Positions 3,493 through 43,125 of a DNA stretch of 64,000 nucleotides are shown one piece after another (position 1 is the first letter of the stretch; each line of letters begins with the position of its first letter). Source of the stretch: Cladosporium halotolerans (lineage: Eukaryota); NCBI RefSeq assembly GCF_011745625.1, contig NW_027191471.1, positions 372,001 to 436,000 on the forward strand, given 5' to 3'. The notes under the pieces are model-generated. The model saw only the letters and a program-made list of their open reading frames with translations. It searched no databases and was not told the DNA's origin. The position numbers and the translations under genes are program-made.

Positions 3493-4380
3493 TCAACCCC
3501 CAGCGCCCTCCGCCCCCCGCCTTTCCTCCCTGACCCTCCTGTTCTCCGCCCTCCTCTCCGCTCTCTCCCTCTCAAAAGCCTCCCTCTCCCGATCGACAGT
3601 TCCCTGCATTTTCTCCGCCATCGCAGCATTGTTCGCTCCTTCCATATTGATGTACGCCTGCGTTTGACGAATCGAATCCTCAATTGCCTGTGCCCAGCTC
3701 GGCTCATTGTCATTCTTCTTCTCTCCAAGCTGGTCAGCAGTGATGCTGTCCCAGAGCTCCTCATACCGCGCGAACTCGGCCTCCTGGCCGAGCGTGATGC
3801 GGCGGTCGTGCCGACGCTGGCGCTGCTCGATGCGGTTTTTGATAAAAGCAGAGAGATTCTCGGGCTGGGGCTTCTTGAAGCGCAGCACGGGGACGCGGTT
3901 CGCGGAGAAGAGCACGGGGACATGGCGTCTGCCAGAGAGCTGGGATAGGGGATGAGGGCGCGAGAAGAGCTCTGATTCGGGCTTGGGCGCTGCACTATTG
4001 TGCTCGTCTGACTGAGGCGGCTTCGTTTCCTTGCTCTTCCGTTTGCCTTTTGGCAGAGGGTTTGGAGGAGGAGTAGATTTGACCTTCGCAGGAGCCCGGT
4101 CCAGCAGCGAGGTAAGGTATTCGGCGCTGCTTTCGTCGCCGGCTGCAGCGGCGTCTAGGTGGTCGATAGCTTCATAGCCGGCTTGGAAGGCCAACCTCAG
4201 CCGGCGGTAGCTATGCAGGTGGATCGTCTGCTTGAAGCGATTGCGGATGATGTTTTGCAGCTCATATTGGGATTTGGTAGGCAGGAGCGCAGCGCGAGAT
4301 TGCTGAAGCAGAGCTCGATACAACGCGATCGCGCTGATGCGGTGGGCGCTCACATGGCGAGGGACGAGAAAGGTCGGCAT
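3493..4380 (-). CDS. LYR-motif (Complex1_LYR) mitochondrial protein
   Basis: N-terminal AIALYRALLQQ...IRNRF LYR signature; coiled-coil C-terminus; single 295-aa ORF. Confidence 0.75.
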   Translation of the reverse strand: MPTFLVPRHVSAHRISAIALYRALLQQSRAALLPTKSQYELQNIIRNRFKQTIHLHSYRRLRLAFQAGYEAIDHLDAAAAGDESSAEYLTSLLDRAPAKVKSTPPPNPLPKGKRKSKETKPPQSDEHNSAAPKPESELFSRPHPLSQLSGRRHVPVLFSANRVPVLRFKKPQPENLSAFIKNRIEQRQRRHDRRITLGQEAEFARYEELWDSITADQLGEKKNDNEPSWAQAIEDSIRQTQAYINMEGANNAAMAEKMQGTVDREREAFERERAERRAENRRVREERRGAEGAGG

Positions 4381-4669
4381 AGACTGCTACTTAGCCATAT
4401 GGAATCGTGTTGAAGTAGGCGGGGCTGGAGAAGAGAGAGAATAGAGAGGACGGGCGAAGCTCTAATGGGAGGTAGCAACAGCCTTGGCACGCCGTCACGT
4501 GCAGGTACCTCGAGTATTGCAGATTATACAGAAACATTTCTACAAGATATAGGAAGGGCGCAGTGACGCGCTAATTGACGTGGTCGCATCCAGTGCGAAA
4601 AAGAAAGGAATGCCTGGAGCTCTGTTCGCTCCTCTGGCCGCGCATCCTCATCATCGAAGCCCATACCCA

Positions 4670-7741: not shown

Positions 7742-8229
7742 TGTGAAAAGCAAGTTGGACAACGCTGGCGTCGCTGGACGTGCGATGAGCTGAGACCAAA
7801 AACAACCCGGCGCAACCAGCAGTATTCGAGCTCTTTCTATCTACACTTGAGGCATTGACAAGATGCTCAACTTGCCGTGACCTTGGTCTCGATCAAGCCC
7901 ACGTGCTGACACAGCCAAGCAGATTGAAACAAGGCGTCGTCGAACGCCAGCCAATTTGCGAGCAGAATGAGTTTTTTCTCGATACGATGGAGCTTAGAGT
8001 GGGAGAGCATTCGAGACCGATGCAGTTGAGCTCGCCCTGGAGAGCGGCGCAGTCGGCTATCAAGCCACATGGCTTGGAGAGCCCGTCGCTAGATTCTTGG
8101 GCCACGTGGGAACCAAGAATCATTCGTGTGGCTTTGTTGATGTAGAGCCGCTAAAATCAAGCCTCTGAGTATAAAGATCAATTCTTATAGGGCAAAGCCT
8201 ACTTGACTCTCTACCTTACCAAGCTGGCT

Positions 8230-8724
8230 TCGCCGGTTTGGGTGCAGCATGTTGTGAGGCCGAAGAAGCTGGCGATCGAGCGACCACCATTTGCGCCATG
8301 CTAGTGCCCATTTGTGACCATGGCGATGGTAGTCAGCTCTGCGTCCAGGCATTCGAGCATTGTTGATGTGTTTCAGAGGTAGCATTCGAGGCTCCGCGGA
8401 GCTCGAAGGCATGAAGTCGGCCTGCAGGCGGCCCGCGTGCGACGCCCGCTCTGGATCTCGGGGCGATCGCCGCTTGGGCGTTCTGCCTTTGGTGGCGGCG
8501 TCGATTGCAGCAGGATAGGCCAGAACCGCAGAGGACGAACGGGGCAACGTACCAGATGTTCGAGCCACATTCGCGGCGCGCTCTGCGATACTCAGTCTGC
8601 CGCAACGCTACGAGAGTATGGTGAGCGAACTCGCATCTATCACGCTCTCCTTGAGGCCTTGACCGACACTGCTGCAATAAACGGAGTTGCGCCAATGGAG
8701 CTTCCAAGTCGACTCCCTCAATAA
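8230..8724 (+). pseudogene. Possible relic of a single-pass (Mid2-like topology) membrane protein gene
   Basis: Fragments in different frames: Cys-rich GAACCE...ICAMLVPICDH, TM-like LGAIAAWAFCLWW followed by RRR, and C-terminal APMELP. There is no intact ORF. Confidence 0.3.
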
Positions 8725-9822
8725 GCGGCTTGCCGTATCCCCAAGGGGGAGTGTGAACGAAGAACTCTGATCAGAAGCTTTGCGCCGGCGGCAAAGCAAA
8801 CGCTGTTCGATACCTTACCTTATTACACTGGCACCATCCAGCCACGTCTCACGGAGCGTCCGTCGGCAACAATAGCAGCATTGAGGCCAAGCAGTCTCGG
8901 CGGCACGCTCTCCTACACAAACAATCCCCTCGAGCCCCAAACCTTGCCTTCGCACAGCAAAACGTCCCGCATCAGCGGAGTCGAAGCCGAAGGCTAGTAT
9001 AAGACGTAAGACCGGTTCATTGAGGGTTGACTGGCTCGACTGGTCGCCGAACGTAGCCCCAAGCCCTGAGGATCTCCGCCAGCCACTACGATGTCCAGCG
9101 TGAAATGGCCCGTCCTGAGCGCCAAAGCTTGAATCGAGCTCAAAGTCGTTACGGTAAAAAAAGAACGTCTCGTGTGGCCTCCACCGTGCGCTGAGTCGTC
9201 AGAGTCCAAACCTTGCCTCCGCAAGCCAGCGTCCACCGTCCACACCAGAGATACTTCGAGCTTAAGTCATTTGAGGCAATTGCAGACTTGGCTGTTTGCT
9301 TAAGCTTACCTTTACCGTCCGGACGAAATCCAGAGACGGACAGGCAGTATGCTGTGTAGCACGCGGCGCACAAAAGCGCCTCACACACGAAATGTAGACT
9401 CATCAGCTCCCACGGCAGGCGAAAAAGTTCGTACGAAGATTTGGAGAAAAAGTAGCCGAGATGACCGAAAGAGAGACACGGACACAAGACGCAACAGAAC
9501 CCTTTTGTATTACCACATTAACCATCTCTACCGTTATCAAAGGAGTCCAAAGAAAGACCTAATTAAAGAAAAGAGCATAGCATAAAAAGGAATGCTGCAA
9601 GCAGGAAAAGAAAAAGCAGTCAGGGTATCTTGTGCGTAAGGGTTAGCCTGCCTTTTTTGCAGTAAAGCACAAAAAAAGGAGAGGCGGGTTCCCAAAGGCA
9701 ATCGGTCCAAAAAACAAACAAACACAAACACATGAACGCGGCAGACGCATTAAACATCAGGGGGCGAGAAGGGAGGGTGTGGCGACGAGGTCGTCGGCGC
9801 GCCGGGCGGTCGGTCAGGCATA

Positions 9823-11967
9823 CTAAGCGCTGGCGGCGACGGCCGGGGTGGGCTGGTTGACGACGGCCTCGGGCTTGTTCTCCTCAGTGCTGGCAACGGC
9901 CGGAGTGGCGGTGGCACGCTCGGCGACGGTCTCGGGAGCGGTGGCGACGGCGGGCTCGGTCTCGTCGGCCTTCTTGTCGGCGACGACGGGAGCGGCGGTG
10001 GTGGTCTCCTCCTCGACCTTCTTCTCGGTGGAAGCGGGAGCAGCGTTCTCCTTCTTGGGCTGCATGCGGTTCAGGGCCTTGCTGGCGCGGCGGCCGAGGT
10101 TGCCGAGCATGGAGGAGCGCTTGTTGCCGTTGGGAGAGGTGGCGTCGGCGACCTTGGGCTCCTCGACCTTCTCGACGGGCTTCTCAGCCTCGGTGGTGGT
10201 GGCAGGAGCGACAGTCTCAGCGACGGGCTCCTCGGCCTTGACGGGCTCAGCAGCGACGGTCTCGTCCTTGGCGGGGACGACCGGAGCGACAACAGCAGCC
10301 TCGGTCTTGGGCTGGTCCTTAACGGCAGCGGACGGGCTCACACTACGGTCCCGCTTGTTCATGAAGGACAGACCAGAGAGGAAGTTCTTCTTCTCCTTGT
10401 TGGGGGTGAGGACCTCGTTGGTCTTGGCAGCCTCAGGGGTGGGCTCGGTGACCTCGGTCTTGGGAGCGTCACCGACGACGGTGGTCTCGATGGGCTCGGC
10501 GGTAGCGGTCTCAGGGAGCTGAGGGGGAGCGTCAGAGACAGCAGCGTCCTTGGCCGGAACCTCGGGCTTGAGCTCGGCCTCCTTCTCGCCCTTCTCCTTG
10601 CTGGGAGACTTGAGGCTGCCCCAGGCACCAGGGATCTTGCCGAAGATGCTGCCACGCTTGGAAACCTTGGGCTTCTCCTCAGTCTTGGTCTCAGCAGCAA
10701 CGGGGAGGGCCTCAATGGGCTTCTCCTCAGCAGCGGGAGAGACGACGGCGGGCTCGGCTAATGTATGTTAGTGTTGATCAGGACTATGAAGAATCGAGGT
10801 ATGCTTACCAGTGGCGGTCTCGACAGGGGCGTCGGTGGCGACAGGAGCAGCAGCGGCGACGACAGGAGTGCTCTCCTCAGCCTTCTTCTCCTCCTTCTCG
10901 GCGGCCTTCTCCTCCTTGACGGCCTCCTTCTCTTCCTTCTTCTCCTCCTTCTTGACCTCGGCCTCCTCCTTCTTGCCCTTCAGGCGGTTGAGCATGCCGC
11001 GGGAGGTGGAGCGGCTCTTGTTCTTCTTCTTGGCCTCTTCATCCTCACCGTCAGAAGAGCCGGTCCGCTTGGGCTCAGCAGAGTCGACCTCGGTGCTCTT
11101 CTTGGGCTGAGACTGGCTCCTGGTCTTGGCCGCAGCGACGGCGCCACCAACAACGGGGGTGTCTAAGAAAATGTTAGTGCTGATATCAGGAACCTCACAG
11201 ATGTGATCAACATACTGAGCTTCTCGATCTCGGCCTTGTAGCCCTCGCTGTCACGGACAGACTCCTTGGAGGCCTTTCCGAGCTCGATGGCCTTCTCAAT
11301 CGACTGGTACCAGCCGTCACGCTCGGCGTCGTTGTTGGCCTTGAAGCTGTGCTTGTGGCCGTGGATGTCGAAGGTGAACTCGTGGGGGTGAGCCTTCTTG
11401 AGGTCAGTGGCCTCGTAGAGAGGGATGACACCAGCCGGCTGGGTGCGGTCGCTCTCGCCCTTCTTGTTGAAGAAGAGAAGGCCCTTGCCGGTCTGGCTGG
11501 CCCAGGCGGTCACGGGGTGGGAGACCTCGGACTTCTCGCCACGGAGGTAGAGACCGAGGTTCTGGGGAGTGACAGCGGCATCGTTCAGCCAGAACTCCTT
11601 CTTGGAGAAAGTGAACTGCCTGGAGGTGATGTTAGAAATTGATTCCCCTGTTTGCGAAGCTATCAGAAAAGGGGAAAAAAACTCACTTGAGCAGACCAGG
11701 AGCCTTGTAGCCAAGCTGGCCCTCGAGGAGAGGCTCAGCGACCTTGGCCTCAGTTGCGGCAGCCTCCTCAGCCTTCTCCTCAGTGGTAGCAGGCGCGGCG
11801 ACGGTCTCCTCAGGCTTGGTGGCGTCGGTGGCGGCGGGAGTGGTCTCGCTGACAGCGGGAACAGTCTCGCCCTCGACTGCTGTAGGAGCAGGAGTCGGGT
11901 TGGTCATGACCTTCTCAACGGTGGCCTCGGTGGCCGGGGCGGCGGTGGTGTTCTGGACGTCGGACAT
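9823..11967 (-). CDS. Meu6-like PH-domain protein with long E/K/A/T low-complexity tail; complement(join(9823..10757,10809..11162,11216..11619,11687..11967))
   Basis: EGQLGYKAPGLLK...AWASQTGKGLLFF...FKANNDAERDGW PH-like core; three canonical introns keep the frame; strong codon bias. Confidence 0.8.
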
Positions 11968-28226: not shown

Positions 28227-30443
28227 ATGGCGACTGTTGCGCCGCAAGCCGTGGACCAGGGCGCCGTCCCCTACACCAATGGCACCTCTGCCCCTACCCT
28301 GCCCGCGACAAACGGCACATCCGCTCCCGTCATGCCCACCGAGCCGACCAACGCCGCCAACACCACCGGCACTGGCGTTGGCAATGGTCCCGAGGTCGTC
28401 AGCACCTCCAATGGACTCGAAGTCATCTGTGGACCGCTGCTGAACTACAGGCGTATGAGCGCGGAGAACACGGACAACCCGATCTGGCATGGTAGTGTGC
28501 TTCTCGTGTGCACCCCAGGCAACGCCCCCGGCAAGCTTACGCTGCAGTCGGGCGAGTCCTCGATCGCGAGTCAGCCTCAGCAGTACCAGGGCACGAAGCT
28601 GTACGAGGACGAGAAGAGTGCTTTCTGGCAGTTCTCCATCGAGGTGCCGTTCTTGGAGCAAGAGTCCGTCTGGCAGTACAGCATACCGAGCATGAGGACA
28701 AAGGCCGGCCAGCCCGTCGACAAGCCGCTCAGGTTTTTCCTTCCCTCCAAGTACGAGAGCATGCGCATCATGTTCCACTCCTGCAACGGTTTCTCCGTGG
28801 GAACTGACGAGGATGCTTGGTCGGGTCCGGCGCTGTGGAACGATGTGCTGCGTGTGCACGCCGAGCGTCCGTTCCATGTCATGATTGGAGGTGGCGACCA
28901 GATCTACAACGACAGCGTTCGTGTCGACGGTCCATTGAAGCCCTGGACGGCCATCAGCAACCCTGAGAAGCGCCGTCACTTCCCCTTCCCGGAGGAGATG
29001 CGTGCGCAGTGCGACCAGTACTATTTTGACAACTACGTGAAGTGGTACGGCATGGCGCCCTTCTCTAACGCCAACGGCCAGATCGCGCAGTTGAACATCT
29101 GGGACGACCACGACATCATTGACGGTTTCGGCTCGTACACCGACCACTTCATGAAGTGCCCTGTCTTCCGCGGCATTGGCGGTGTCGCACACAAGTACTA
29201 CATGCTCTTCCAGCACCACCTGCCCCCGCCCGTGAGCACTTACACCACGGACGCACCGCAGACCACGGGAGGCCACAACAAGTCCACACCTGGCGACCCT
29301 GCCCAGCTGCAGAAGTCCTACGTCGCGAAGCTCGATGTTGAGGATCCCAGCTACATCATCGGCAAGAAGCCCGGTCCGTACGTCGAAGAGCGTAGCAGAC
29401 ACATCTTCTGCCAGCTTGGCAAGCGCATGGCTTTCCTGGGTATCGATGCTCGTACTGAGCGCACGCGCCACCAGATCAACTATCCCGAGACTTACGAGCA
29501 GATCTGGAACCACGTTGACCAGCAGGTCACCAAGTCCAACGGCGGTATTCGCCACCTGATCTTGTTGCTCGGTGTCCCCATCGCTTACCCGCGTCTGCAA
29601 TGGCTCGAGAACATCCTCCGCTCTCCCGTCATCGCTCCTCTCCGTCTGCTCAACAAGCGCTTCGGTGTGGCCGGCAGCTTCTTCAACCAGTTCGACGGTG
29701 GCGTCGATCTCCTCGATGACCTAGACGACCACTACACGGCCGGCCAGCACAAGAAGGAGCGCAAGGAGATCGTCCACCGCCTCCAGGGCCTCGCCAAGAA
29801 GCATTCGATGCGCATCAGCATCCTCGGCGGCGACGTCCACCTCGCCGCCCTCGGCCGCTTCTACTCCAAGCCCGAGCTCAACATCCCCGCCGAAGCCGAC
29901 TGGCGCTACATGCCCAACATCGTCAGCAGCGCCATCACCAACAAGCCGCCGCCGACCGCCGTCGCCAACCTGCTCGCGAGGCGCAACAAAATCCACCACC
30001 TCGACCACGAGACCCACGAGACCCTCCTCGAGCTCTTCAACAAGAACCCCGGCGCCGGCGAGCCGGGCGTCAAGCCCAAGTCCGCCGACAACAACCACGC
30101 CACCATGCCCAGCAGGAACTACGCCATCATCACCGAGTCCAACCCGCACTCCGCGCCCGGCGTCAACGGCGCCACGGTCCACGCCCCCAACGGCGACAGC
30201 ACCACTTTCACCGCCCCCAAGAACCCCCGCGAGCCCCTGCACGCCGGCGAGCAGGGCGCCGGCACCGAGCACGCTGCTGCTTCCGGTGTCAAGCGCACGG
30301 GTCTCATGGGCGTCGACGGCCTGGACGTCTGCATCCGCGTCGAGAAGAACCCGAGCGATCGCGAGGGCCACACGGAAGGCTATGGGTTCAGTATCCCGGC
30401 GCTGGAGGTTGCGGGATACAAGGGGCAGGGCGACAAGTGGTGA
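28227..30443 (+). CDS. PhoD-like metallophosphatase
   Basis: FHSCNG, GGGDQIYND, IWDDHDIIDGFGSY and LGGDVH metal-ligand motifs; no signal peptide. Confidence 0.88.
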   Translation: MATVAPQAVDQGAVPYTNGTSAPTLPATNGTSAPVMPTEPTNAANTTGTGVGNGPEVVSTSNGLEVICGPLLNYRRMSAENTDNPIWHGSVLLVCTPGNAPGKLTLQSGESSIASQPQQYQGTKLYEDEKSAFWQFSIEVPFLEQESVWQYSIPSMRTKAGQPVDKPLRFFLPSKYESMRIMFHSCNGFSVGTDEDAWSGPALWNDVLRVHAERPFHVMIGGGDQIYNDSVRVDGPLKPWTAISNPEKRRHFPFPEEMRAQCDQYYFDNYVKWYGMAPFSNANGQIAQLNIWDDHDIIDGFGSYTDHFMKCPVFRGIGGVAHKYYMLFQHHLPPPVSTYTTDAPQTTGGHNKSTPGDPAQLQKSYVAKLDVEDPSYIIGKKPGPYVEERSRHIFCQLGKRMAFLGIDARTERTRHQINYPETYEQIWNHVDQQVTKSNGGIRHLILLLGVPIAYPRLQWLENILRSPVIAPLRLLNKRFGVAGSFFNQFDGGVDLLDDLDDHYTAGQHKKERKEIVHRLQGLAKKHSMRISILGGDVHLAALGRFYSKPELNIPAEADWRYMPNIVSSAITNKPPPTAVANLLARRNKIHHLDHETHETLLELFNKNPGAGEPGVKPKSADNNHATMPSRNYAIITESNPHSAPGVNGATVHAPNGDSTTFTAPKNPREPLHAGEQGAGTEHAAASGVKRTGLMGVDGLDVCIRVEKNPSDREGHTEGYGFSIPALEVAGYKGQGDKW

Positions 30444-30779: not shown

Positions 30780-32259
30780 CTAGTGCGGCACGTTCCCCAA
30801 AAACACAACGAGCACCGCGCAATACCTGTCCACCGATTCAGTCAGCCGTGCCCATCCAACCTCCATCCATTCCCCAGCCCTCAAATCAAGACAAAGGAAG
30901 ATAAGAAAGCCCACTCACGCAGCAGCAGCCCCCAGCACCTCATGCCTCCTCGCCCGCGTGCACGCAGCCAACACAGCACAAAACAGCAGCGTGCTGACCA
31001 GCACGATCCCCACGCACAGCCCGCCGCGCCCGCGCCCGCGCCCGTTCTCACGGCTCACGGTGCTGAAGAGCAGCCAGATGGGGATCGCGAGCAGCGCGCC
31101 GACGAGCGAGGTCAGGAGCAGGCTGGCGCAGAAGTCGATGCGCGAGGGCGTGTAGTAGCGTTCTTGGCTGTGGCTGGAGCGATATTTGAGGTGCGTTTCC
31201 TGTGAGGGGCGGGTTAGGGGTTGGGGTCGGAGGGGGGAGGGGGAGGGAGGGGAGGAAGTACGGGGGAGCAGAAGATGCGCTGTCGTTGGGTTAGTGAGCT
31301 GACGCGAGAGTAGAGGACGATGGTCGGCGTACGTTAATGAACGGAAAGGGTCTCTGGAGGATGTGGATGGATCGCTCGATGCGGCGGTCGAGCCATGCGT
31401 GGTCACGGCCGGGTCGCAGGGTGATGAGGTCTTCTTTATACTGGAGGTAATCCATCTCTTCGTCTACGAGTGGCTTATTATTGCGCAGGTACATGCGCAC
31501 AGCGTTGTACTCGGAGGCGGAGGGGCGGTTGGAGGCTTCCAGATGCTGAGCGGAAGTGAGGACGGTGGCTGAGGATAGCTTAGTGTTGGCCTCAGTGGAA
31601 AGGGAATGGTCATTTACTCTGACCATAGGAATTAAAGGCCTTTTCGATCTGCTCAAGAAGCTCTCCGCGAGTCGCTAGCTCATCGGGCAAGAGGGTCCGG
31701 GTAACGCTGTTACTGATGTTCTGGCGATCGTATTCGTCGAGCTTGCATTCCAGCACTCTCAGCACGTCTTGCTTTTCGAGCAGGAGCCGACTCTGTAGGT
31801 AGGCAAAGCGCCGGTATAGAGAAAAGCAGTCGCTGCTGCTTTGAAATGCAGCTAGGTTAGGATATCCGACACGGAAGTCGTCCACTTGGTGTCATTGAGT
31901 TACTCGATTTGCCTTTCTTCGCCCGCCGAGAGAGCAGACATAGGGCGTGGGACGTACATGATCGCACTTTCAGCTCTCCCAAAGGTCTTTTCCACTGGCT
32001 GGCCCAGTATCTGCTCAGTAGGGCGACCGGAGACTGCAGGTGGCTTGGTAGTTTGGGTGCTACTGCTCTCGATCAGCGCCTGGGTGTAAAGTCCATGCTC
32101 TCGTCGATCATGACCTTGTTCATTAGACTGATTTCCGATCTTTCCAGGCTGGCGCGCGTGGTTCCGATCGTTCGAATGCGGTGGGTCTGTGGTGTCTGCC
32201 GGAGAGATACAGTCCGAAACAGCACATTTCTCAATATCGAAATCCTCGACACTCGTCAT
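30780..32259 (-). CDS. DUF6594-like multi-TM membrane protein, multi-exon
   Basis: Spliced N-terminal ELKVRSLDDFRVGYPNLAAF...YRRFAYLQSRLLLEKQD, then YLQYKEDLITL, then C-terminal TM helices ending TRARRHEVLGAAAA|YCAVLVVFL. Canonical introns keep the frame (last intron 30826..30918). Confidence 0.8.
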
Positions 32260-32389
32260 CTCGAACCGGTCCCGCAGCAAAGCACAGATGTCGAAGAAAA
32301 GGGTACGAGTATGTAGAGATCTAATATCACCAGCACCCTTCATCACGAGCTATGTGCGCCTTGTTACACAATTCATCAAGGACAGCGCG

Positions 32390-32959
32390 TCAGTGACGCT
32401 TCTGACCAGTGCCTGCGGGACGGTGCAACAGCCGACGCCACCATCGCTCTTGGGCCCTCTCGTGCTCTTCTTGCGCCTTTTCTTGTAGAACTCTCGCCTC
32501 TTCCTCTCTAGCTCTCGCCTCTTCTTGTCGAATTCTCGCCTCCTCTTCTCGAGCTCTCGCCTCTGCCTCCCGGGTCCTCACTTCTTGCTCTTCCGCTCCC
32601 ACCGCTCCCACCTCGTCCTGTCGAGGATGAGCAAGCAAAGCGCCCTGAATGTCCGTGAACGGCCGACCATTGGCGTCTCTCAACTCATACACCATCCTGC
32701 CAGTCTGCTTATCGTAATCTCTGGCGTGTACAGTCAAAATGGGTGATTCCGTCTCGCTCATCCGGTACCTTACTTGGTCGCCTATGTTCCACACCCTCTA
32801 CTCGATATAAGTTAGCTCTGTCCGTGTCGGCATAACCGAGAACATCAACCACACACGCACAGGTGCTGGATTCTTTGCGCGTATCACGGTGTCGCGCCAT
32901 TGCGGCCATTCACGTAGCGCAGGCTGTGCGGGATCATGACCGTTGCTGTCCCCTGTCAT
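32390..32959 (-). CDS. Small protein (about 168 aa): Tudor/SH3-like beta-barrel plus heptad-repeat coiled coil; complement(join(32390..32797,32861..32959))
   Basis: ATG 32959; intron GTGCGT..GCTAAC..TAG; WNIGDQVRYR...LTVHARDY...MVYELRDANG; AREEEAR-type repeats. Confidence 0.6.
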
Positions 32960-33620
32960 CTTGACGTCGCCTTACGGAGGCTTGTTCCTCGAGGCTGAGT
33001 GGCCAGTGTGTCCTGCTGCCGCCTGATCTGTGAGGCTATGAAGTCACGCTGCTGTGAGGCGAGGCAGTTGCGACAGGACGACACGGCACGCCGCATGATA
33101 TCCGTAGACTGGCTGATTGCTGGACCAATCTGTTCGCTTTGGCTTAGAGCAGCAAACGACGAGTCACCGGCTGGTTGGGTCACAAACCTGCAGGCTGGCG
33201 GTGCTGGAGACGCAAAGCGTGGCGGTGCCTGCGAGCTGGTTCTTTCGTCTCGGCAAATGCTCTCGCTAAGGCTGCATGACTTCACTGTCGTTCATAGGGC
33301 AGATATCGGTCGGCTGACACATCTTCAGGTCTTGAATCACTGGTTTGCCCTGTCTTCTGTCTTTGAGCTGTCTTTCTTCCACGATGCCTGCCTTTAGCTA
33401 GCGAGACTTACGAAATTGCCTTCAACCAGACAAATCTGGGCCATGAACACTGAGCACAAGCAAAGCGCGCAGTCACTGTTTGACCGCGATGTTTCTCATC
33501 TCTCTTCCGCCCCATAAAATGAATGGGATCACAAGCTCTCGCGCTACACCGACCCAAACCGGCGTAACCCACCGCGCCGCAAACACCCAAAGTGGCATCG
33601 CGACAGATCTGGGAGCGGGT

Positions 33621-34902
33621 GATGGGGACTGCCTCGTCACCCAGAAAATACAAGAAGACATCCGTGCTCATCCTCGGCTGGGCGGAAGGAAGCGATGACA
33701 CAGGGACTGCTGAAGAGGTGAGATCCGCGCCCTTGACTGTGTTACTTGAGGCTCGGACCGAAGAAGCTGACTCGTGCCAGCTCATACCGTTGCAAGAAGT
33801 GCTCCACGACCTCTATCATTTCTCTGTGCGCTACGAGCGCATGCACCTGCAGACGCACCCGCAGGTCCAGGCGACGAAGCACGTGGCGGAGTTCATGCTC
33901 GACGAGGACGGGCCGGGGAACTTGCTCATCGTGTACTACGCCGGACACGGCTCGGCGGAGAGGACGAGCACCGGGCGGCTGCGGCTCAGCGGTCGCTTTC
34001 CGTGCTCGGAGGAGGAGAAAGATATGAGCGTTGACTGGACGGATGTGGAGAGCACGCTTGCGAAGGCGCGGTCGGATGTTCTTGTGATTTTCGACTGCTG
34101 TCATGCAGGGCTGCTCTGCTGTCCGGCGACTCGTGGGCATCGGCGCAAGTTTCAGTATGTCGCGGCGTGCAAGGCTGACCAAAGGACGGCGAGTGCGGGT
34201 CGCAGGTCGTTTACGTCCGCGACGATCTGGGCGCTGAAGCAGTTGACAGATAGGCCTGGGTTCACGGTAACGAAGCTGGTGCAGACGCTCTTGCGGTGTG
34301 AGCATTTTCCGCTCTATCAACAAGAGGTTGTCGTCTATCCTAGCCGCTTCGGACCTGCCGAGGAAGACATCTGGCTTGCGCCGATGACAGAGAGACGCAG
34401 TGACGGTCAAGATGCACCAGACACTAACCTTTCGAGCGACGAAAGGACCGATAACTTACCGACGGCGGATATTCTGGATTTACGCTTGCACTTCTCCGAC
34501 CATGCGACGGCTGCTCACATCGAAGACACAGCCCAGGCGCTGCGAAATTTCCTCGAGACTTCTCAAGATCTCCATTTCCATCGCGTCTCGTTCTTGGATC
34601 ACACATCGTACGTGCAATGGTGCGCAAGGCATTGGCTCGGACAGACGCGCAGGGCAAGATCAACAAGTGAGGGCATGGCGCGTGCACAAGCGGCTTCCGA
34701 CCTCATTGGTACCTCAGCCGCAGACAAGGATGGTGGCCAACAGACGGATTTTTCATCCAAAAGCGATGCGGCTGTCGCGAAGGATTCTGGCATTGCTGCA
34801 ATATTTCATCATGTCGGCATGGCGCTTGGCCTTTGCTTCGGCACCTTGCAGCCGGTGCCCGCGTGGCATTCAACGGCGTTCGTGGTGACAAGGGTGGTTT
34901 GA
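33621..34902 (+). CDS. Caspase-like (clan CD, peptidase C14-like) cysteine protease; intron 33718..33780; 5' end uncertain
   Basis: YKKTSVLILGW beta-1 strand; LLIVYYAGHG (His at 33946) and VLVIFDCCHAG (Cys at about 34096) dyad; downstream AAC and SFT motifs. Confidence 0.8.
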
Positions 34903-36123: not shown

Positions 36124-37471
36124 ATGTCGTTCCTCGGCGACGAAGAATGGGCCTACCGCCCCCGCCGCCCCTCAGCCCGCCACCAGCACGCCGTCAGCGG
36201 CTACCACCTGGACCCCAACGCCCACTACCGCCGCGAACCCTCCGGCAGCCTGCAACGCACGCGCTCGACCGGCCACTCGCCAGCGCCCATCGTGAACGTC
36301 TACAACGACGTCTACCAAGACGCCAATCTGCGCGCGGACTCGCACTCGCCACCCGTCATCCCCATCCCGCCCTACAACCACACGCCCGACTTCCGCGGCC
36401 GCCGCCTCGGCGACCAGCTGGCCGACGAGCTGGCCGAGATGCGCCTGGAGCGGCGCATGCGGTCGCGCAGCCGCGGGCGCAGCGATGCGAGCTCGAGCTC
36501 CGGCCGCGGCGGCCGGAGCGACTACTACCGGCACGAGATGGACCGGCTGGAGCGCGAGAAGCGCGAGATCGAGCAGCGCGAGGCGTGGAAGAAGGAGGAG
36601 GCGCGGATCAAAGCCGACATTGAAATCAAGCGGTTGAAAGACGAGGCGAAGCGGGCCGAGAACGATGCGGCGCAGGCAGCGGAGAAGAAGCGCGTGATCG
36701 AGGAGTATGAGCGCAAGCAGCGGGAGGCGAAGGAGAAAGCGAAGGAGGAGGAGCTAAGGATCATTGAGAAGATGGAGCGCGATAAGCGCGAGGCGAAGGA
36801 GGAGGAGAAGAGGCTTATGGAGAAGATCGAGCGGGAGAAGCGCGAGGAGAAGGAGCGCGAGGAGCGCGAGTGGGCGGAGTTCGAGCGAAAGCGGAAAGAG
36901 AAGCAGGAGAAAGAGGAGCGCGAGAAGAAGGAGGCGCAGGAGAAACTCGACGAAGCGATGCGCAAACGGCTTGCCGAGAAAGGTTTCACGCATTCGCAGA
37001 TCGAAGCCATTATGGACAAGGAGAAGGCGGCCAACAAATCCACTACAAAAATCACCACAACGACGACAACGACCTCCCGTGCTCTGGCGCCACTCAACTC
37101 CCACGTCCCCGTCTACGCCAAAATCCACGTCAACTACCTCTCCACCGAAACTCTGCGCTACTACGACATCCCCTGGGAATACGACCGCGTAAGCCCATCC
37201 ACTTTCCAACTCCATCCTTTTGCCACCTCACTAATTCGCATAACAGAACGACCCCTCCTACATCATCATCCTGCGCGAGATGAGCAAGCACGAGACGAAC
37301 GTGCTCTTCGACCACACGAAAGCGCTGCGCGCCGGCCGCCTGCTGCTCGACGCGCCTAGCGAGAAGAAGCCCGAGTACGCGTGGTACCGCAAGCGCGACC
37401 GCAGCAAGAGCCGCGTGCGCGACGGCGGCGGCGAGTGGAAGAAGTTTGGCATTTTGGAGATCAAGCGGTGA
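36124..37471 (+). CDS. Conserved fungal coiled-coil protein (DUF8035-like C-terminal motif); intron at about 37189..37247
   Basis: E/K/R coiled coil, then PVYAKIHVNYLSTETLRYYDIPWEYD|...YIIILREM...LFDHTK; strong codon bias. Confidence 0.75.
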
Positions 37472-38038: not shown

Positions 38039-40456
38039 TCATTTCCTCTGCCCCGGAGGTTGCCGTTTCTGCTCAGCATTGTCCGCTCGATGACGGTGTG
38101 TTCTCTGCGACTCCCAGAGAAGCTGAGCTACTTCGGTATCACTTCTATCGAGCGCGTACTCCAAGGGAGAAATACCATCATGAGTATCGCGATTAACGTC
38201 TGCGCCGCCATCGAGGAGTTCACGAATAGTTGCTAACATCTTTTTCCCGCGGAGTCTACCGCCAACCGCACCGTACCTGAGCGCTTCAAGCAGTGGGTTC
38301 ATGTGCGGGCCGGCGTCCGATCCATTTGGGTCGGCACCGTAATCCAGCAAAAGTCGCACGATCGAGGGCTGAAGGTGTTGGGCAGCGAACGTCACTGCAG
38401 GCGTGTAGTTCGAGTTTATACCCTGCATGTGTGGAGACGTTCCGTGCCTCAGAAGTAGCTCCACCGTTTGTAGACTGCCGACGTCGATGGCGAAAAACAT
38501 AGCTTCTCTACCACGGGTAACGGCGCTCGCACCATGTGATAACAGGGTTTCTACTGTCTTTGGTGAATTTGAATCGACAGCTCGTTCGAGGAGGCTACCA
38601 TGAAATCCTTCGAACTCAGTATTAAGATCGAGCTTGGTCTGGAGAAGGCCCAACCCCTCTTCATTCGCACCTGAAAATCCTCTGTCGCGCGGGTCTGGTG
38701 CTGAATTAGCTTCCAGGACCGCTTCTAGGAGCGTATGGCACCGATAATTGCAAAGCAAGTAAACTAGGGAAATGGGGTGATCGCGAAGAAGAGGCGGCCG
38801 TTCTAATCCGAGTACCATAATCCAGTGAAGGACCACCCAAGAAGATAGGGGAAACCCAATCAGACATTCTGTGGTCGGCAATCCGCCGTGTTGTGACTGC
38901 TCAAGATGGTGGAACATGCACACCACTGAATACATTAACAGCGGGAAGTTTCTCTCCAAATCTAGGCATATTTCATGACGGCGCGCGTTGTGAAGGTCAG
39001 GATCGGAGGACTGTGCTTCCTCGAAAGCAAGTCTCTCCGCCTCCGCTTGATATGATCGATAAGTCGCGCCGTCAAGATCCACATACGTCTGGCACCATTG
39101 AGCTAGCTGCAGGTGGCCGTGCCTTGGGTGGGCTCTGGCCGGGCACGAAGTAATGCTCGCCAGACCGCCTGCGAGAAGGAATTCTCTGACAGACTCGTGG
39201 ACCAATTGCGCTCTGAGAAATTCGTCATAGTCATTCTTCGTAATTTCGACAAGCCCGCGAGACGATGCGAGCACGAAAGATACCATGGCATCGCGACTGA
39301 GCTCATCGGAATCCCATGCACCAGAAGCCAAATGTCCAGCCCCTGTCCGAATAGCGAAATATAGCTCTTCTGGAGTCAGTGGCCGTTCAGCATACAGCAT
39401 CCATTGCATTGTCACAACAAGAGCATCGTCTGGCGCCGCAAGCACACGGGCTATCAGTTCCTGCAATTTGATCGGCACCTCGTCCAGCGTGCGTAGTATT
39501 TCGGAAGTGCATGCTCCAGTGTCACTCTTCTTCTTCAACATGCGTACAACGAGGACAACCCAGAAAAAGACTCCGGAGCACCGTTGCTGGATTTTGCCAA
39601 TGAGCTGATCTCGAAGCGAATTGTCCCGAATCGATAGCTTGTTGCGCACGTAAGTTTCTATGTCCCGCTGATGTTCAGATTGCGCCTCAAGCTCGATGTG
39701 AACGCAGTGCTGTATAGTGATCTGCGGGTAGTATCGGCTGGCGAAGCAGAGGTAAAGTTGGATGCCTGTGGACTGAGCAATGAGCGCGAGTTCCTCGAAG
39801 TGCTCAATGGCATCTCGCATGTCGTCCTCATCGCACTCATCGAGGGCGTCGACATATATTGACAACGCTTGGTCTTTTCCGAAGCAAGAGATGGCTCCGG
39901 TCAGAAAGTTCCTCAAAGCCGCAACTGGCCATTCGCCTTGCTCGGTATTTCGTGGGACCTCGAATGAGAATTTGAGGCGCATTTCCGGAAATTGCGTGAG
40001 TATCTGTACTAACAGAGATCGATACAACCCTTCTACGGACTTCTCCAAGTCATGGCCGCGTGCGTTGAAGAAGAATGAGATGATTGAGTTGTCTCTGTGT
40101 ACTTTTCTCGCATGTTCCAGGGCGCATTTCATCATCGTGGATTTGCCTGAACCAGCTTTGCCTTTAATCCATAAGAAGCCGTGATGTTGCTCAAGATGAT
40201 CGGAGTAAGCCCAGTCCAAGTACTGCTGCTTCTCGAAAAGCCAGGAGCAGGTGCTGACATGGGCAGGGTCAATGCTGTGATAGCGAGAGTCCATCTGGTC
40301 GAACTTGAGGGCCTTGATGAAGAGCTCGACCTTGTCTTCCTGCAATTGCCTGCGTCCTCCATCATCCATGCCATGAAACTGGTTCTGGATGTACGTGTGA
40401 CCATATTGCACTCTCGCGTTGTCTTGTGCGATGGAGTGATCCCAACGCGTTGACAT
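38039..40456 (-). CDS. NLR-like STAND protein: short amyloid-like leader, NACHT NTPase, winged helix, ankyrin repeats
   Basis: Walker A GKAGSGKST, Walker B YVDALDEC, LKFDQMDSR..I..AH..TC.W pre-NACHT motif, G.FFWV.LV, and about five ankyrin repeats (LLDYGADPN, LLDGGADVN). Confidence 0.92.
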   Translation of the reverse strand: MSTRWDHSIAQDNARVQYGHTYIQNQFHGMDDGGRRQLQEDKVELFIKALKFDQMDSRYHSIDPAHVSTCSWLFEKQQYLDWAYSDHLEQHHGFLWIKGKAGSGKSTMMKCALEHARKVHRDNSIISFFFNARGHDLEKSVEGLYRSLLVQILTQFPEMRLKFSFEVPRNTEQGEWPVAALRNFLTGAISCFGKDQALSIYVDALDECDEDDMRDAIEHFEELALIAQSTGIQLYLCFASRYYPQITIQHCVHIELEAQSEHQRDIETYVRNKLSIRDNSLRDQLIGKIQQRCSGVFFWVVLVVRMLKKKSDTGACTSEILRTLDEVPIKLQELIARVLAAPDDALVVTMQWMLYAERPLTPEELYFAIRTGAGHLASGAWDSDELSRDAMVSFVLASSRGLVEITKNDYDEFLRAQLVHESVREFLLAGGLASITSCPARAHPRHGHLQLAQWCQTYVDLDGATYRSYQAEAERLAFEEAQSSDPDLHNARRHEICLDLERNFPLLMYSVVCMFHHLEQSQHGGLPTTECLIGFPLSSWVVLHWIMVLGLERPPLLRDHPISLVYLLCNYRCHTLLEAVLEANSAPDPRDRGFSGANEEGLGLLQTKLDLNTEFEGFHGSLLERAVDSNSPKTVETLLSHGASAVTRGREAMFFAIDVGSLQTVELLLRHGTSPHMQGINSNYTPAVTFAAQHLQPSIVRLLLDYGADPNGSDAGPHMNPLLEALRYGAVGGRLRGKKMLATIRELLDGGADVNRDTHDGISPLEYALDRSDTEVAQLLWESQRTHRHRADNAEQKRQPPGQRK

Positions 40457-40911
40457 GGTGTTTTGCCTATGCGAGATCTGAGCCGTCCGTCCGCGTATGA
40501 TCTGACTGAGCCTAATCAGCGTAACCCCTCACCTTTCTGTGTGTTAGCGAGTTCGAAACGTTGTGCTGCTCAATTCGCGCTTGCAACACTCGCAGCCCAG
40601 GACAATGCGGCCTTCAAGGTCATCCGCGATGCATTTGAAAAGTTGTGATGAAGATCAGGCTGAAGTGCGAATCTAACAACCCGATCTCAGGGTGCCGCTA
40701 ATGCACAGTCGCTTGCCGCCAGCTCACGCTGAAACTCCTCATGCGAGGCTGAGCTATATATAAACCGAATCCACTGGGCAATGCTGACATGCTATAGCAA
40801 CAAAAACCGCTACTGGAGTTTCTTCGTCACTAATCTTCCAAGTTTCACATATCCGTCTTATAATCCCCTGTATCACAGCGCAAATTTAGTGTCCCTTTAT
40901 CTATTACCGTC

Positions 40912-43125
40912 ATGGCAGCAAGCGTGGTGCAAAACGGGAGCACTCACGAAGTACTGGAGCTTTCATCGTCTGATTTGATGGAACACATCGATACGAGTGC
41001 GCAACATATAGAGCAGCAGTCCGACAAAGAGATCCCAAGCTCTGTATTTGAGACCAAAAATGCGAATGCTGGACACCGCTACCACAGTAACGTTGTCGAA
41101 GGCAATGGCAGAGCTCATTTCGGCAACGTCTATACGCAAACTGTCAACTACTACGTGACCCCGTCAGGCAATCGGTCATTCCAAACATGTGCGGTCGCAA
41201 CTACACTTCTGCTTGACCAGGCCGAGCTCACCGGCCAGAAGCGAAAGCATATCGAAGACGCAAACGCATTTGAGCCGCGGAAACTACCAAAAGAGTCTCT
41301 CGATACGGCGTTGAGCAAACTGCAGAAGCTGTCTCTCTACATGGAGACTCCCATGCAAGATTTACCGGCCCGCAAGATCACTCGTCGAATTGCCACAGTC
41401 ATTGACGCGTTGAAGTCATCCGGTTTCGCGCGATCAGCGAGACAACACACTGATTACCAGTGGAGTGATTTGAGAGAACGTCTTCTCCTCGGCAGAAGGC
41501 TGAGGATCAACTCCCCACCTCCGGTTGTTAATTGTGGGAACTTCGCTGTCGTCCAGCGCAGACGCGATGTCCTGAGATATGCTCGGTGGGAAATCACCCT
41601 GACAACTACGGAAACGAGCGTTCCCGACGAGGAAGGCCATGAGACAACGCAGTCTATGTCGGTCTTGCGTCTTGAACCATGTTGCAACCATACAGGCTCT
41701 CCTTTAGTGGCCTTCTTCGGGTGTCAGACGGATCTCTTGCGCACAAATATGATACACCCGGTGGTCCTTGCTTACCGGACAGTTCCAGGGGACTCGGAGG
41801 TGTTCAGTGTGATTGAGGAAGATGACCTTGAAGGCCTATTGAAGCTAATGGCTACGCAAAAAGTTACGGTCAGAGACTGTGACGAGAAAGGCCGGTCTCT
41901 GCTCTCGGTACGTACAAAACAACGGTGGATTTCTTGATGCTGACTCTTGTAGTATGCGTCCTACTATGGAAGCCCAACATGCTGCAAATATCTTTCCGAA
42001 AGTGGCGTCGATGTCGATAGGCTTGAGGCCTCTTTCTTCTTCCGGTACGTACAGCTTACAATGTGTGATAAGACCTTCCCCGGAGAGAGTCACACAGTCT
42101 AATGGTCATGAAGTGGGACGGAGCCAGCGTTGGGAGTAGCAAGTTCAGATGAAGCAGACGTGACCAGAGAGCAGTATACAAGAATGATGCAATGCAAGAT
42201 AAGCTTGCTGGAAGCTGGCGCGGATCCAACAATTGACTACGTAAAGGACGACGGCTCATTATACTCGGCCCAGGGCATCAGGGACGCATTATCCTGCAGT
42301 GACATCGATCGGAGTTCTACAGTCAGTTTACACTGTCCAACCATCGCGTGAGGAACTAACTCCGTTTAGGAAGCATTGAACATGCTGTTCAAGCATGGCA
42401 GATCCTTTATCGATCTAAGCAGTTTACGCATTGACGGCTTGAGCATCTGGCTTCGTTCATGCAACGATGCAATGTTCTTGAAAACCCCACGAGTCCTGGA
42501 ATACTTGATCAAAGCAGGCTGCGACATAGAGGAGGTCGACAACAATGGCTGGAATTGTTTGTTCCACTGCGTGCTTAATGCACACGGACCTAACACGTCG
42601 AAGTCCTTCGAAGCACTTCTGTACCTGCTTAGCGTATTTTCAAAGATCGACGCGCAGGATCGATACAAGAAATCCATCTATGACAGGGTGAGCCGTGCAG
42701 ATGATGAACATGGAAGCTATCAACGGGATCTATGGTATCATGGTCTTGAACGGTCAGGAATATGCACTCACGGAAGCTTGCACTCTCGACTTAGCGCTTC
42801 TCGGTACACCCTGGATTACACGCCACAGCACCATCGTGCAATGCGCTACCTGGATACTTGGACTTTCTCCGAGTACTTCGGCAACACAGACACGACAGAA
42901 ATAGACGCCATGTATCCAATGACTGAGTACGAGGCTGCCGAGACTGCTCGTCTTGCCCGGTTGCGAGAACAGATTGAGAGCGAAGAACAACTTCGAGAAG
43001 ACGAGACTGAGGAAAGCGAAGATGATATGTTTGAAGGCAGCGAAGATGAATGGAATGATAGCGGCTGTGACGACGACGGTGACGACGACTACGATGACGA
43101 CGAAGCTGCTGATGATCATTTGTAG
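40912..43125 (+). CDS. Ankyrin-repeat protein with N-terminal HET-s-like motif; join(40912..41907,41953..42044,42114..42320,42370..43125)
   Basis: Ankyrin units (DEKGRSLLS|YA, LLEAGADP, LIKAGCDIEEVDNNGWNCLF); three canonical introns preserve the frame; acidic tail. Confidence 0.8.

Follow-up and report, generated by a model that had tools for sequence, protein, structure and literature searches.

A caspase-like protease gene, a small-barrel gene and a DUF6594 membrane-protein gene form a conserved cluster, very probably a functional unit, in Pezizomycotina

A 64-kb window of DNA from Cladosporium halotolerans (the whole stretch analysed, to which all coordinates refer unless a locus is named) carries a gene for a caspase-like cysteine protease, transcribed divergently from two tandem genes, one for a small protein with a predicted barrel and one for a membrane protein of the Pfam family DUF6594 (PF20237). 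This arrangement raises the question of whether the three genes are neighbours by accident or act together and, in the latter case, to what end. Effectors of regulated cell death and immunity in fungi include HeLo/HELL, gasdermin, patatin and HET proteins, and they have often been found via small gene clusters. We conclude that the three genes are very probably functionally coupled and form one conserved unit of Pezizomycotina. That a proteolytic switch among their products is the mechanism stands at even chances, where we infer which protein cuts which and what follows from it, and regulated cell death or defence as the outcome is put forward tentatively.

The conservation of the neighbourhood was assessed in 80 metagenome loci with relatives of the protease (26-64% identity), which came from a pattern scan with the protease alignment; merging loci whose protease genes were at least 95% identical in DNA resulted in 62 non-redundant groups. 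Genes in these loci were detected by tblastn and local hidden Markov models (HMMs), not by curated models. DUF6594 was sought by tblastn, using the window exons and the DUF6594 half of the protein P0109, as well as with a profile from alignment A2, and both approaches agreed in finding it in the same 36 of the 80 loci. Eighteen groups have 3 kb or more of sequence on either side of the protease gene, and 16 of these were found to hold DUF6594 and the small-barrel gene within approximately 2.5 kb of it. Over all 62 groups, 26 DUF6594 genes and 29 small-barrel genes lie within 4.5 kb of the protease (258 kb of sequence), compared to one DUF6594 gene and no small-barrel gene beyond that distance (170 kb), corresponding to an approximately 17-fold enrichment of DUF6594 near the protease and to 29 versus 0 occurrences of the small gene.

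The two well-flanked groups without partners are L005, where a flavin mononucleotide (FMN)-dependent dehydrogenase and a kinase are encoded upstream of the protease in place of the partners, and L079. The latter has tandem protease genes (8053-8929 and 9977-11155 of that locus, both +); up to a distance of 10 kb from these, DUF6594 and the small gene are both absent, and the vicinity contains a gene with a HET domain, another with TPRs and an open reading frame (ORF) resembling a retroelement integrase.

The small ORF was detected by the local HMM in 29 of the 62 groups, including 22 of the 26 groups bearing DUF6594. In three of the four remaining DUF6594 groups, DUF6594 is situated at the contig edge, and the fourth, L035, contains a DUF6594 fragment only; conversely, seven further groups show the small ORF on contigs that end short of where DUF6594 would be expected. 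In every group with both, DUF6594 is immediately preceded by the small ORF in the same orientation. The orientation of the protease gene, on the other hand, varies between the 26 groups, being divergent, as in the window, in 11, downstream of DUF6594 in nine (DUF6594-then-protease), upstream of it in five (protease-then-DUF6594) and convergent in one. The sole departure from the order of small gene followed by DUF6594 was observed in L056, where a small barrel gene (74-268, +) directly precedes a same-strand protease gene (837-1755, +) on a contig too short to reveal DUF6594. In L021/L022, a second DUF6594 paralogue (3654-4620, +) is present beside the trio, 5.4 kb upstream of the protease and without a small gene of its own.

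When 76 ORFs from the flanks of 19 loci were scanned against Pfam, the neighbours proved to be unrelated between loci and mostly of housekeeping type, among them RPN6, Sof1, PEX6, GCN1, SHMT, Brr2, PGK, TAF6, a polyketide synthase and Pol epsilon; no recurrent family, and thus no fourth conserved partner, was found among these ORFs. HET or NB-ARC genes occur in three of the flank-scanned loci, to which the window adds a NACHT-ankyrin gene 3 kb from the trio. Since orientations vary and flanking genes are unrelated, the trio has been kept together while its surroundings changed, and simple inherited synteny does not explain the clustering.

Across 22 loci, the protein distances of protease and DUF6594 correlate with r = 0.74 and those of the small protein with each of the two with r = 0.53; none of 2000 permutations reached the observed correlations. 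Divergence is greatest in the small protein (mean p-distance 0.74), ahead of the protease (0.61) and DUF6594 (0.50). The correlated distances, calculated from the sequences, are compatible with co-inheritance of the three proteins.

In named species, the adjacency of protease and DUF6594 is reflected by genome annotation. Twelve species are shared by the protease and DUF6594 lists among the matches listed, and nine of these have adjacent locus tags or contigs of equal length for the two genes. The tags are consecutive in Zasmidium cellare (27112/27113), Cladophialophora chaetospira (011413/011412) and Pseudocyphellaria aurata (000967/000968), and leave one gene between the two in Phialophora macrospora (04785/04787), while in Zopfia, Massarina, Lindgomyces, Aplosporella and Viridothelium both proteins are encoded on contigs of equal length. 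Toensbergia, Acephala and a Mollisiaceae species have them on separate contigs among the matches listed, where paralogues may be missing. Matches to the trio families span Dothideomycetes, Eurotiomycetes, Lecanoromycetes and Leotiomycetes, and several genomes contain at least two or three members of the DUF6594 subfamily. Together with the 16 of 18 loci and the positional enrichment, the locus tags bear out what a preliminary description, made from the letters of the window, had called a compact three-gene module; the neighbourhood enrichment that it had suggested looking for is found among the 62 metagenome groups (26 and 29 genes near the protease versus 1 and 0 farther away).

In some annotated proteins, parts of the trio are even joined. 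P0109 merges C14 and DUF6594, and the lichen-fungus models P0177 and P0185 merge C14, barrel and DUF6594; these three could be genuine fusions or else the result of tandem genes being predicted as one. P0177, P0185 and P0109 as well as P0181 are annotated proteins of lichen-forming or rock fungi with 591-893 aa, of which P0181 (893 aa) carries PF20237 alone in precomputed annotation.

Gene models for the window (Table 1) were built by alignment, with one splice joint taken from contigs. The positions, motifs, sizes and spacing that the preliminary description had given for the three genes agree with these models in every detail. The protease is encoded in a 426-codon open frame that includes an in-frame 63-nt intron (33718-33780, GTGAGA..CAG), the position of which is predicted from the family alignment. 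The small gene has a 63-nt intron as well (GTGCGT..TAG, conforming with GT..AG), and its stop codon (32390) is separated by 130 bp from the ATG of DUF6594 (32259). The divergent intergenic region on its other side is presumed, from this layout, to be a shared promoter region.

The six-exon DUF6594 model can be aligned over its full length with P0172, P0158, P0149 and P0142, and its start MTSVEDFDIEKC agrees with the conserved N-terminus of the family. Contigs of four runs, X10, X20 and X21 among them, were compared with the models; none of the runs listed is registered as RNA, the RNA nature of the four is a guess, and most of their cover is uninformative on expression. An X21 contig joins 31568 to 31624, skipping exactly the predicted intron 2 of DUF6594 (31623-31569; GT..AG, minus strand), and in X20 a 9-letter loose end at 31569 matches this splice at 8 of 9 positions. 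The last intron is predicted at 30918-30826; the joints seen in X10, from 30827/30831 to 30910/30911, disagree with it and were left aside. An X20 contig also skips 56 bases at 33730-33787 with GT..AG on the minus strand, albeit weakly (depth 4, side 28); this skip lies antisense to the beginning of the protease gene, where it overlaps the intron predicted on the plus strand, and could stem from an antisense RNA or from a small-gene transcript with a long, spliced 5' leader.

Table 1. Features of the three-gene locus in the 64-kb Cladosporium halotolerans window.
Feature	Position	Strand	Basis or remark
C14 (caspase/metacaspase-like) cysteine protease gene	33622..34902	+	Pfam match and family alignment
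Protease exons	33622-33717, 33781-34902	+	405 aa after splicing
Catalytic histidine motif YYAGHG	33934..33951	+	invariant Y-Y-x-G-H-G in alignment A1
Catalytic cysteine motif FDCCHAG	34090..34110	+	invariant D-C-C-x-A-G in alignments A1 and A5
Divergent intergenic region between small gene and protease gene	32960..33621	.	662 bp between start codons (32959, 33622)
Small gene, 168 aa, predicted barrel	32390..32959	-	local HMM family membership
Small gene exon 1, intron, exon 2	32959-32861, 32860-32798, 32797-32390	-	exon 1, 33 aa; exon 2, 135 codons
DUF6594 (PF20237) membrane protein gene	30780..32259	-	377 aa, six-exon model
DUF6594 exons	32259-31968, 31884-31624, 31568-31333, 31279-31262, 31199-30919, 30825-30780	-	
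Conserved DUF6594 motif LITLRPGRDHAWLD	31387..31428	-	near-invariant in DUF6594 family
DUF6594 hairpin of two predicted transmembrane helices	30957..31133	-	mapped by alignment from P0158 model
DUF6594 third hydrophobic segment, C-terminal	30824-30792	-	

The protease matches the Pfam family Peptidase_C14 (PF00656) at 22.4 bits, marginally above the cut-off of 21.4; besides a weaker match to Raptor_N, no other Pfam match was found in its ORF. PF00656 is also assigned to many of its homologues in precomputed annotation, and the PADLOC model 'caspase' matches with E = 4e-6. His109 and Cys159-Cys160 are invariant in the 25 sequences of alignment A1, and the His and Cys-Cys positions are equally invariant in the 52 sequences of A5. 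Judged by this conservation, the protease is apparently active. The best profile match in the Protein Data Bank is Arabidopsis metacaspase-4 (6w8s, E = 0.22), and it covers the region of the His motif only.

With metacaspases and bacterial caspase-like proteases (C14, clan CD), the trio protease has the His and Cys motifs in common. In contrast to C14 metacaspases, its family has a C-terminal part of its own, where the C14 core is followed by a conserved alpha/beta region (ADILDLRLHF, 34465-34494) and, after a disordered linker, by a hydrophobic helix (34792-34848) that is conserved at the C-terminus. Bacterial relatives (Streptomyces, cyanobacteria) match at the generic caspase core only (residues 100-163, 30-40% identity), and no DUF6594 or small-barrel neighbour was found at 79 bacterial caspase-core loci (755 kb). 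Among caspase-like proteases, the family of the trio forms a large fungal branch that has gone unstudied.

The second partner is a clear member of Pfam DUF6594 (PF20237), as three pieces of its exons match the profile at 57, 40.3 and 63 bits (cut-off 30) and span positions 1-232 of 238. With the A2 profile, no second DUF6594 site was found in the 64-kb window, and the pattern scan revealed no prokaryotic relatives. The analysis covers one subfamily of PF20237, marked by an N-terminal ..EKG.. start, an LRPGR(E/D)HAWLD loop and the ending KAKRHEILAAAAAYCAVLVVF. The homologue P0158 was modelled with 77 sequences (predicted local distance difference test score, pLDDT, 70.8); the model consists of a disordered N-terminus of approximately 60 residues, a long helical hairpin (89-122 and 142-170), short helices and a C-terminal transmembrane hairpin (helices 259-291 and 296-321). 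DUF6594 is accordingly predicted by this model to be anchored in the membrane via the C-terminal helical hairpin, with the long, cytosolic helical hairpin in front.

The near-invariant motifs LDSDE.FM.YRRF and LITLRPGRE(H)AWLD of DUF6594 fall into low-confidence segments of the model. T208, L209, G212, R213, L218 and D219 recur in 90% or more of the 77 sequences, and pLDDT is below 50 at residues 205-212. From this combination of conservation and low model confidence, the motif LITLRPGRDHAWLD is proposed as a candidate cleavage or docking loop. A Foldseek search with the P0158 model gave no match at E ≤ 0.001. The matches obtained with VIA-align were generic helical hairpins (for example ESCRT-III Vps24, Z 7.8), which are within the noise for helical models and were rejected, and in the ESM Atlas DUF6594 matched DUF6594 clusters only.

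The small protein had initially appeared to be an orphan, a reading that was dropped because the merged models P0177 and P0185 exposed a barrel family: between their PF00656 and PF20237 parts sits a segment of 60-70 residues resembling the small protein of the window. A local HMM seeded with the P0177/P0185 segment and the window protein was iterated once, and by this HMM the window protein joins the family with E = 5e-17. Exon 1 ends in a ..R..KNP.. tail motif, the window version (..WRDTVIRAKNP) of a linear basic motif conserved in the family, approximately (D/E)RS.Y.GSKNP; exon 2 encodes the barrel at 32797-32612, and the intron site immediately before the barrel is conserved in the family, too. 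When the barrel part was used in a word-index search, the sole match was one unspliced ORF of 98% identity. In a phmmer search of 1.8 billion representatives, the small protein gave 14 matches to giant repetitive proteins; seven of them were scanned against Pfam (adhesin-like, Big_1, FG-GAP and similar), and all 14 were rejected as compositional. The ESM Atlas returned unnamed clusters for the barrel, with DHFR_2 and DUF3104 as leads below 0.9.

None of 24 barrel family members came near a curated Pfam cut-off, including those of Tudor, chromo, Agenet and SH3, the best sub-threshold matches being Agenet (0.029) and Myosin_VII_N (0.024). At the level of structure, the barrel of the family member L072, modelled from a 24-sequence alignment (A3; pLDDT 80.1), found as its top solved structures 6hq9 (ERCC6L2 Tudor), 2dig (LBR Tudor) and 2f5k (MRG15 chromo-barrel), with target template modelling (TM) scores of 0.62-0.78 and root-mean-square deviations of 2.3-2.9 Å over approximately 60 residues; Foldseek probability is 1.00 for these matches, with E-values of only about 1e-2. 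The small protein family is therefore predicted to adopt a five-stranded SH3-like barrel of the Tudor/chromo-barrel fold, where the model is that of the relative L072, to which the small protein of the window is linked by family membership. With regard to a putative aromatic cage for methylated Lys or Arg, the positions W, W.Y and W are conserved in most barrel members and replaced in the subgroup of the window. The predicted fold is similar to that of the Tudor/chromo-barrel 'royal family'; in contrast to the latter, however, the small gene has a protease gene and a membrane-protein gene as neighbours rather than chromatin genes.

The Tudor/SH3-like call of the preliminary description hence holds at the level of the fold and fails at that of the sequence family, whereas the helical domain with C-terminal membrane helices that it had read in the DUF6594 protein reappears in the model of P0158. 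Following its barrel, the small protein of the window continues with a tail (32390-32611, -) of approximately 70 residues, an E/A/R-rich repetitive coiled coil that is lineage-specific. Its closest relatives (L001, L004 and L043) stop right after the barrel; by this sequence comparison, the tail is a recent low-complexity extension.

If the trio operates by a proteolytic switch, the protease would be recruited to the membrane, probably by its own conserved hydrophobic C-terminal helix, and would cut either DUF6594 or the small protein at a basic site that is conserved and exposed. Metacaspases prefer a basic residue at P1, and such a preference is assumed here by analogy. Two sites are candidates for the cut, namely the loop LRPGR(D/E)HAWLD in DUF6594 and, in the small protein, the tail ..RS.Y.GSKNP. 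Cleavage would then alter what DUF6594 does in the membrane. The small barrel protein may serve as a regulator, be it inhibitor, adaptor or bait; it is read in this way because it is the fastest-evolving of the three and always encoded directly upstream of DUF6594. In its most specific form, in which we place limited trust, this amounts to an undescribed death or immune module of Pezizomycotina, where a metacaspase-like protease, restrained or steered by a quickly evolving Tudor-like bait or inhibitor, would cleave DUF6594 as a helical, membrane-anchored executioner of a new class. The preliminary description had proposed a possible defence system in which the protease activates a membrane effector and the small protein acts as sensor, inhibitor or adaptor. 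The extra copies in several genomes, together with the partnerless loci L005 and L079, give a patchy pattern that fits accessory or conflict genes.

The nearest known counterparts are protease-gasdermin clusters. Passages of two reviews describe fungal gasdermin genes clustered with S8 or CHAT protease genes in filamentous ascomycetes (PMC12881547, PMC10197012), and the caspase and protease passages of these reviews mention only gasdermin clusters with S8 or CHAT. As far as these passages go, HET-Q1/HET-Q2-type clusters and the trio are alike in that a protease gene lies beside the gene for a membrane-targeting protein in a cluster of two or three genes, and conserved clustering of protease and membrane-protein genes is indeed found for the trio (16 of 18 loci). 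Unlike in gasdermin clusters, the membrane protein of the trio is, according to the P0158 model, all-helical with a transmembrane hairpin, and no gasdermin was among the fold matches of P0158 (Foldseek, VIA-align); its protease is C14-like and stands alone, carrying no WD40, TPR, ANK or NOD modules; and a third, Tudor-like gene belongs to it. Lacking a gasdermin as effector and an S8 or CHAT enzyme as protease, the trio at most resembles such clusters without being one of them, and HET-Q1/HET-Q2 serve as no more than an analogy. A search of the full-text literature, with subscription journals and supplements outside its scope, returned nothing on 'DUF6594' or 'PF20237' and nothing joining 'metacaspase-like' with 'Pezizomycotina'; a broader search yielded general reviews only.

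Several observations weigh against the proposed switch, including its reading as a death or defence module. On the side of the protease, the C14 assignment is marginal by sequence (22.4 versus 21.4 bits; best Protein Data Bank profile match at E = 0.22), and sensor repeats are lacking. On the side of DUF6594, the P0158 model found no Foldseek match at the threshold given above and resembles no known pore-forming or death fold (Foldseek; VIA-align Z ≤ 7.8), and none of 84 proteins of the subfamily is fused to NACHT or NB-ARC. As regards the barrel, the subgroup to which the window belongs has other residues in place of the conserved tryptophans. As to the locus, HET or NOD-like receptor (NLR) genes near the trio in approximately 4 of 19 loci are roughly what is expected by chance, shared species history accounts for part of the distance correlations, and errors of annotation may lie behind the merged gene models.

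Of the alternatives, the one that survives best keeps the three genes together and changes their purpose. The trio would be a membrane-tethered protease complex for housekeeping or signalling (processing, quality control or stress signalling), with DUF6594 as membrane anchor or regulator, the barrel as adaptor and no part in death or defence. We regard this as possible, if somewhat unlikely. The identical clustering evidence applies to it, and the conserved hydrophobic C-terminal helix of the protease as well as the DUF6594 protein, which in the model looks constitutively membrane-anchored, would suit such a complex; HET/NLR neighbours that are not enriched, the absence of NLR fusions among the subfamily proteins and the wide occurrence of the trio in stress-tolerant rock, lichen and endophytic ascomycetes are in line with it, too. 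The patchy distribution with extra copies and losses and the quick divergence of the small partner, however, are less usual for complexes of this kind, and none of the homologues has a known housekeeping role.

A second alternative reduces the unit to two genes, with the barrel ORF as an upstream cistron or alternative 5' exon of the DUF6594 transcript, giving one mRNA or protein. That the small ORF always immediately precedes DUF6594, in the same orientation, points in this direction, as does the gap between them (32260-32389), which is equally tight in other loci and makes bicistronic or read-through transcription possible. P0177 and P0185 join barrel and DUF6594 in one model, and the X10 and X20 contigs, themselves RNA by guess, run unbroken across the gap. 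Yet, in the window the small ORF is followed by an in-frame stop, and DUF6594 has a conserved N-terminal start of its own, the residue E10 of which is found in no fewer than 90% of 77 proteins and in the window; in L056, moreover, the small gene directly precedes the protease gene instead. On balance, we consider two genes instead of three improbable. Adjacency by chance, or by inherited gene order of expanded families without a functional link, is highly improbable, since the size of the C14-like and DUF6594 families in these fungi and the well-flanked, partnerless loci L005 and L079, which would speak for it, stand against both partners in 16 of 18 informative loci, the enrichment of both genes near the protease, varying orientations and flanks that rule out simple inherited synteny, and the independent support from locus tags in named species. 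A coupled unit of three genes is, hence, the reading that we retain.

Further genes in the window lie outside the conserved trio. A NACHT(NPHP3_N)-ankyrin NLR gene (38039-40528, -) and a divergent ORF (40864-41937, +) have a near-N-terminal motif in common, N.R..[YF]G..Y.Q, which reads NARVQYGHTYIQ in the NLR and NGRAHFGNVYTQ in the neighbouring ORF; the two resemble the paired amyloid-signalling motifs that occur in NLR and effector genes of fungi. Farther along from the protease gene, on its downstream side, 36124-37359 (+) encodes a K/E/R-rich coiled-coil protein of 411 aa without a Pfam match. This gene, which like the NACHT-ankyrin gene is not part of the trio, is syntenic only in the close relatives L002, L003, L005 and L008, including L005, where DUF6594 and the small gene are absent. 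On the other side, a PhoD_2-type phosphatase gene (28227-30443, +; E = 1.6e-54) is situated directly downstream of DUF6594 and convergent with it; it is not kept beside the trio at other loci.

The occurrence of the trio across at least four ascomycete classes gives a context to DUF6594, to a branch of caspase-like proteases and to a family of small barrel proteins that annotation pipelines have mostly missed. If the death or immune reading were true, the trio would represent a fungal counterpart of caspase-to-membrane-effector systems that manages without gasdermin and without a HeLo/MLKL-type domain. If the protease acts on the membrane protein, a new fungal caspase-to-membrane pathway would be at hand; otherwise, the three genes would define a new membrane-associated protease complex.

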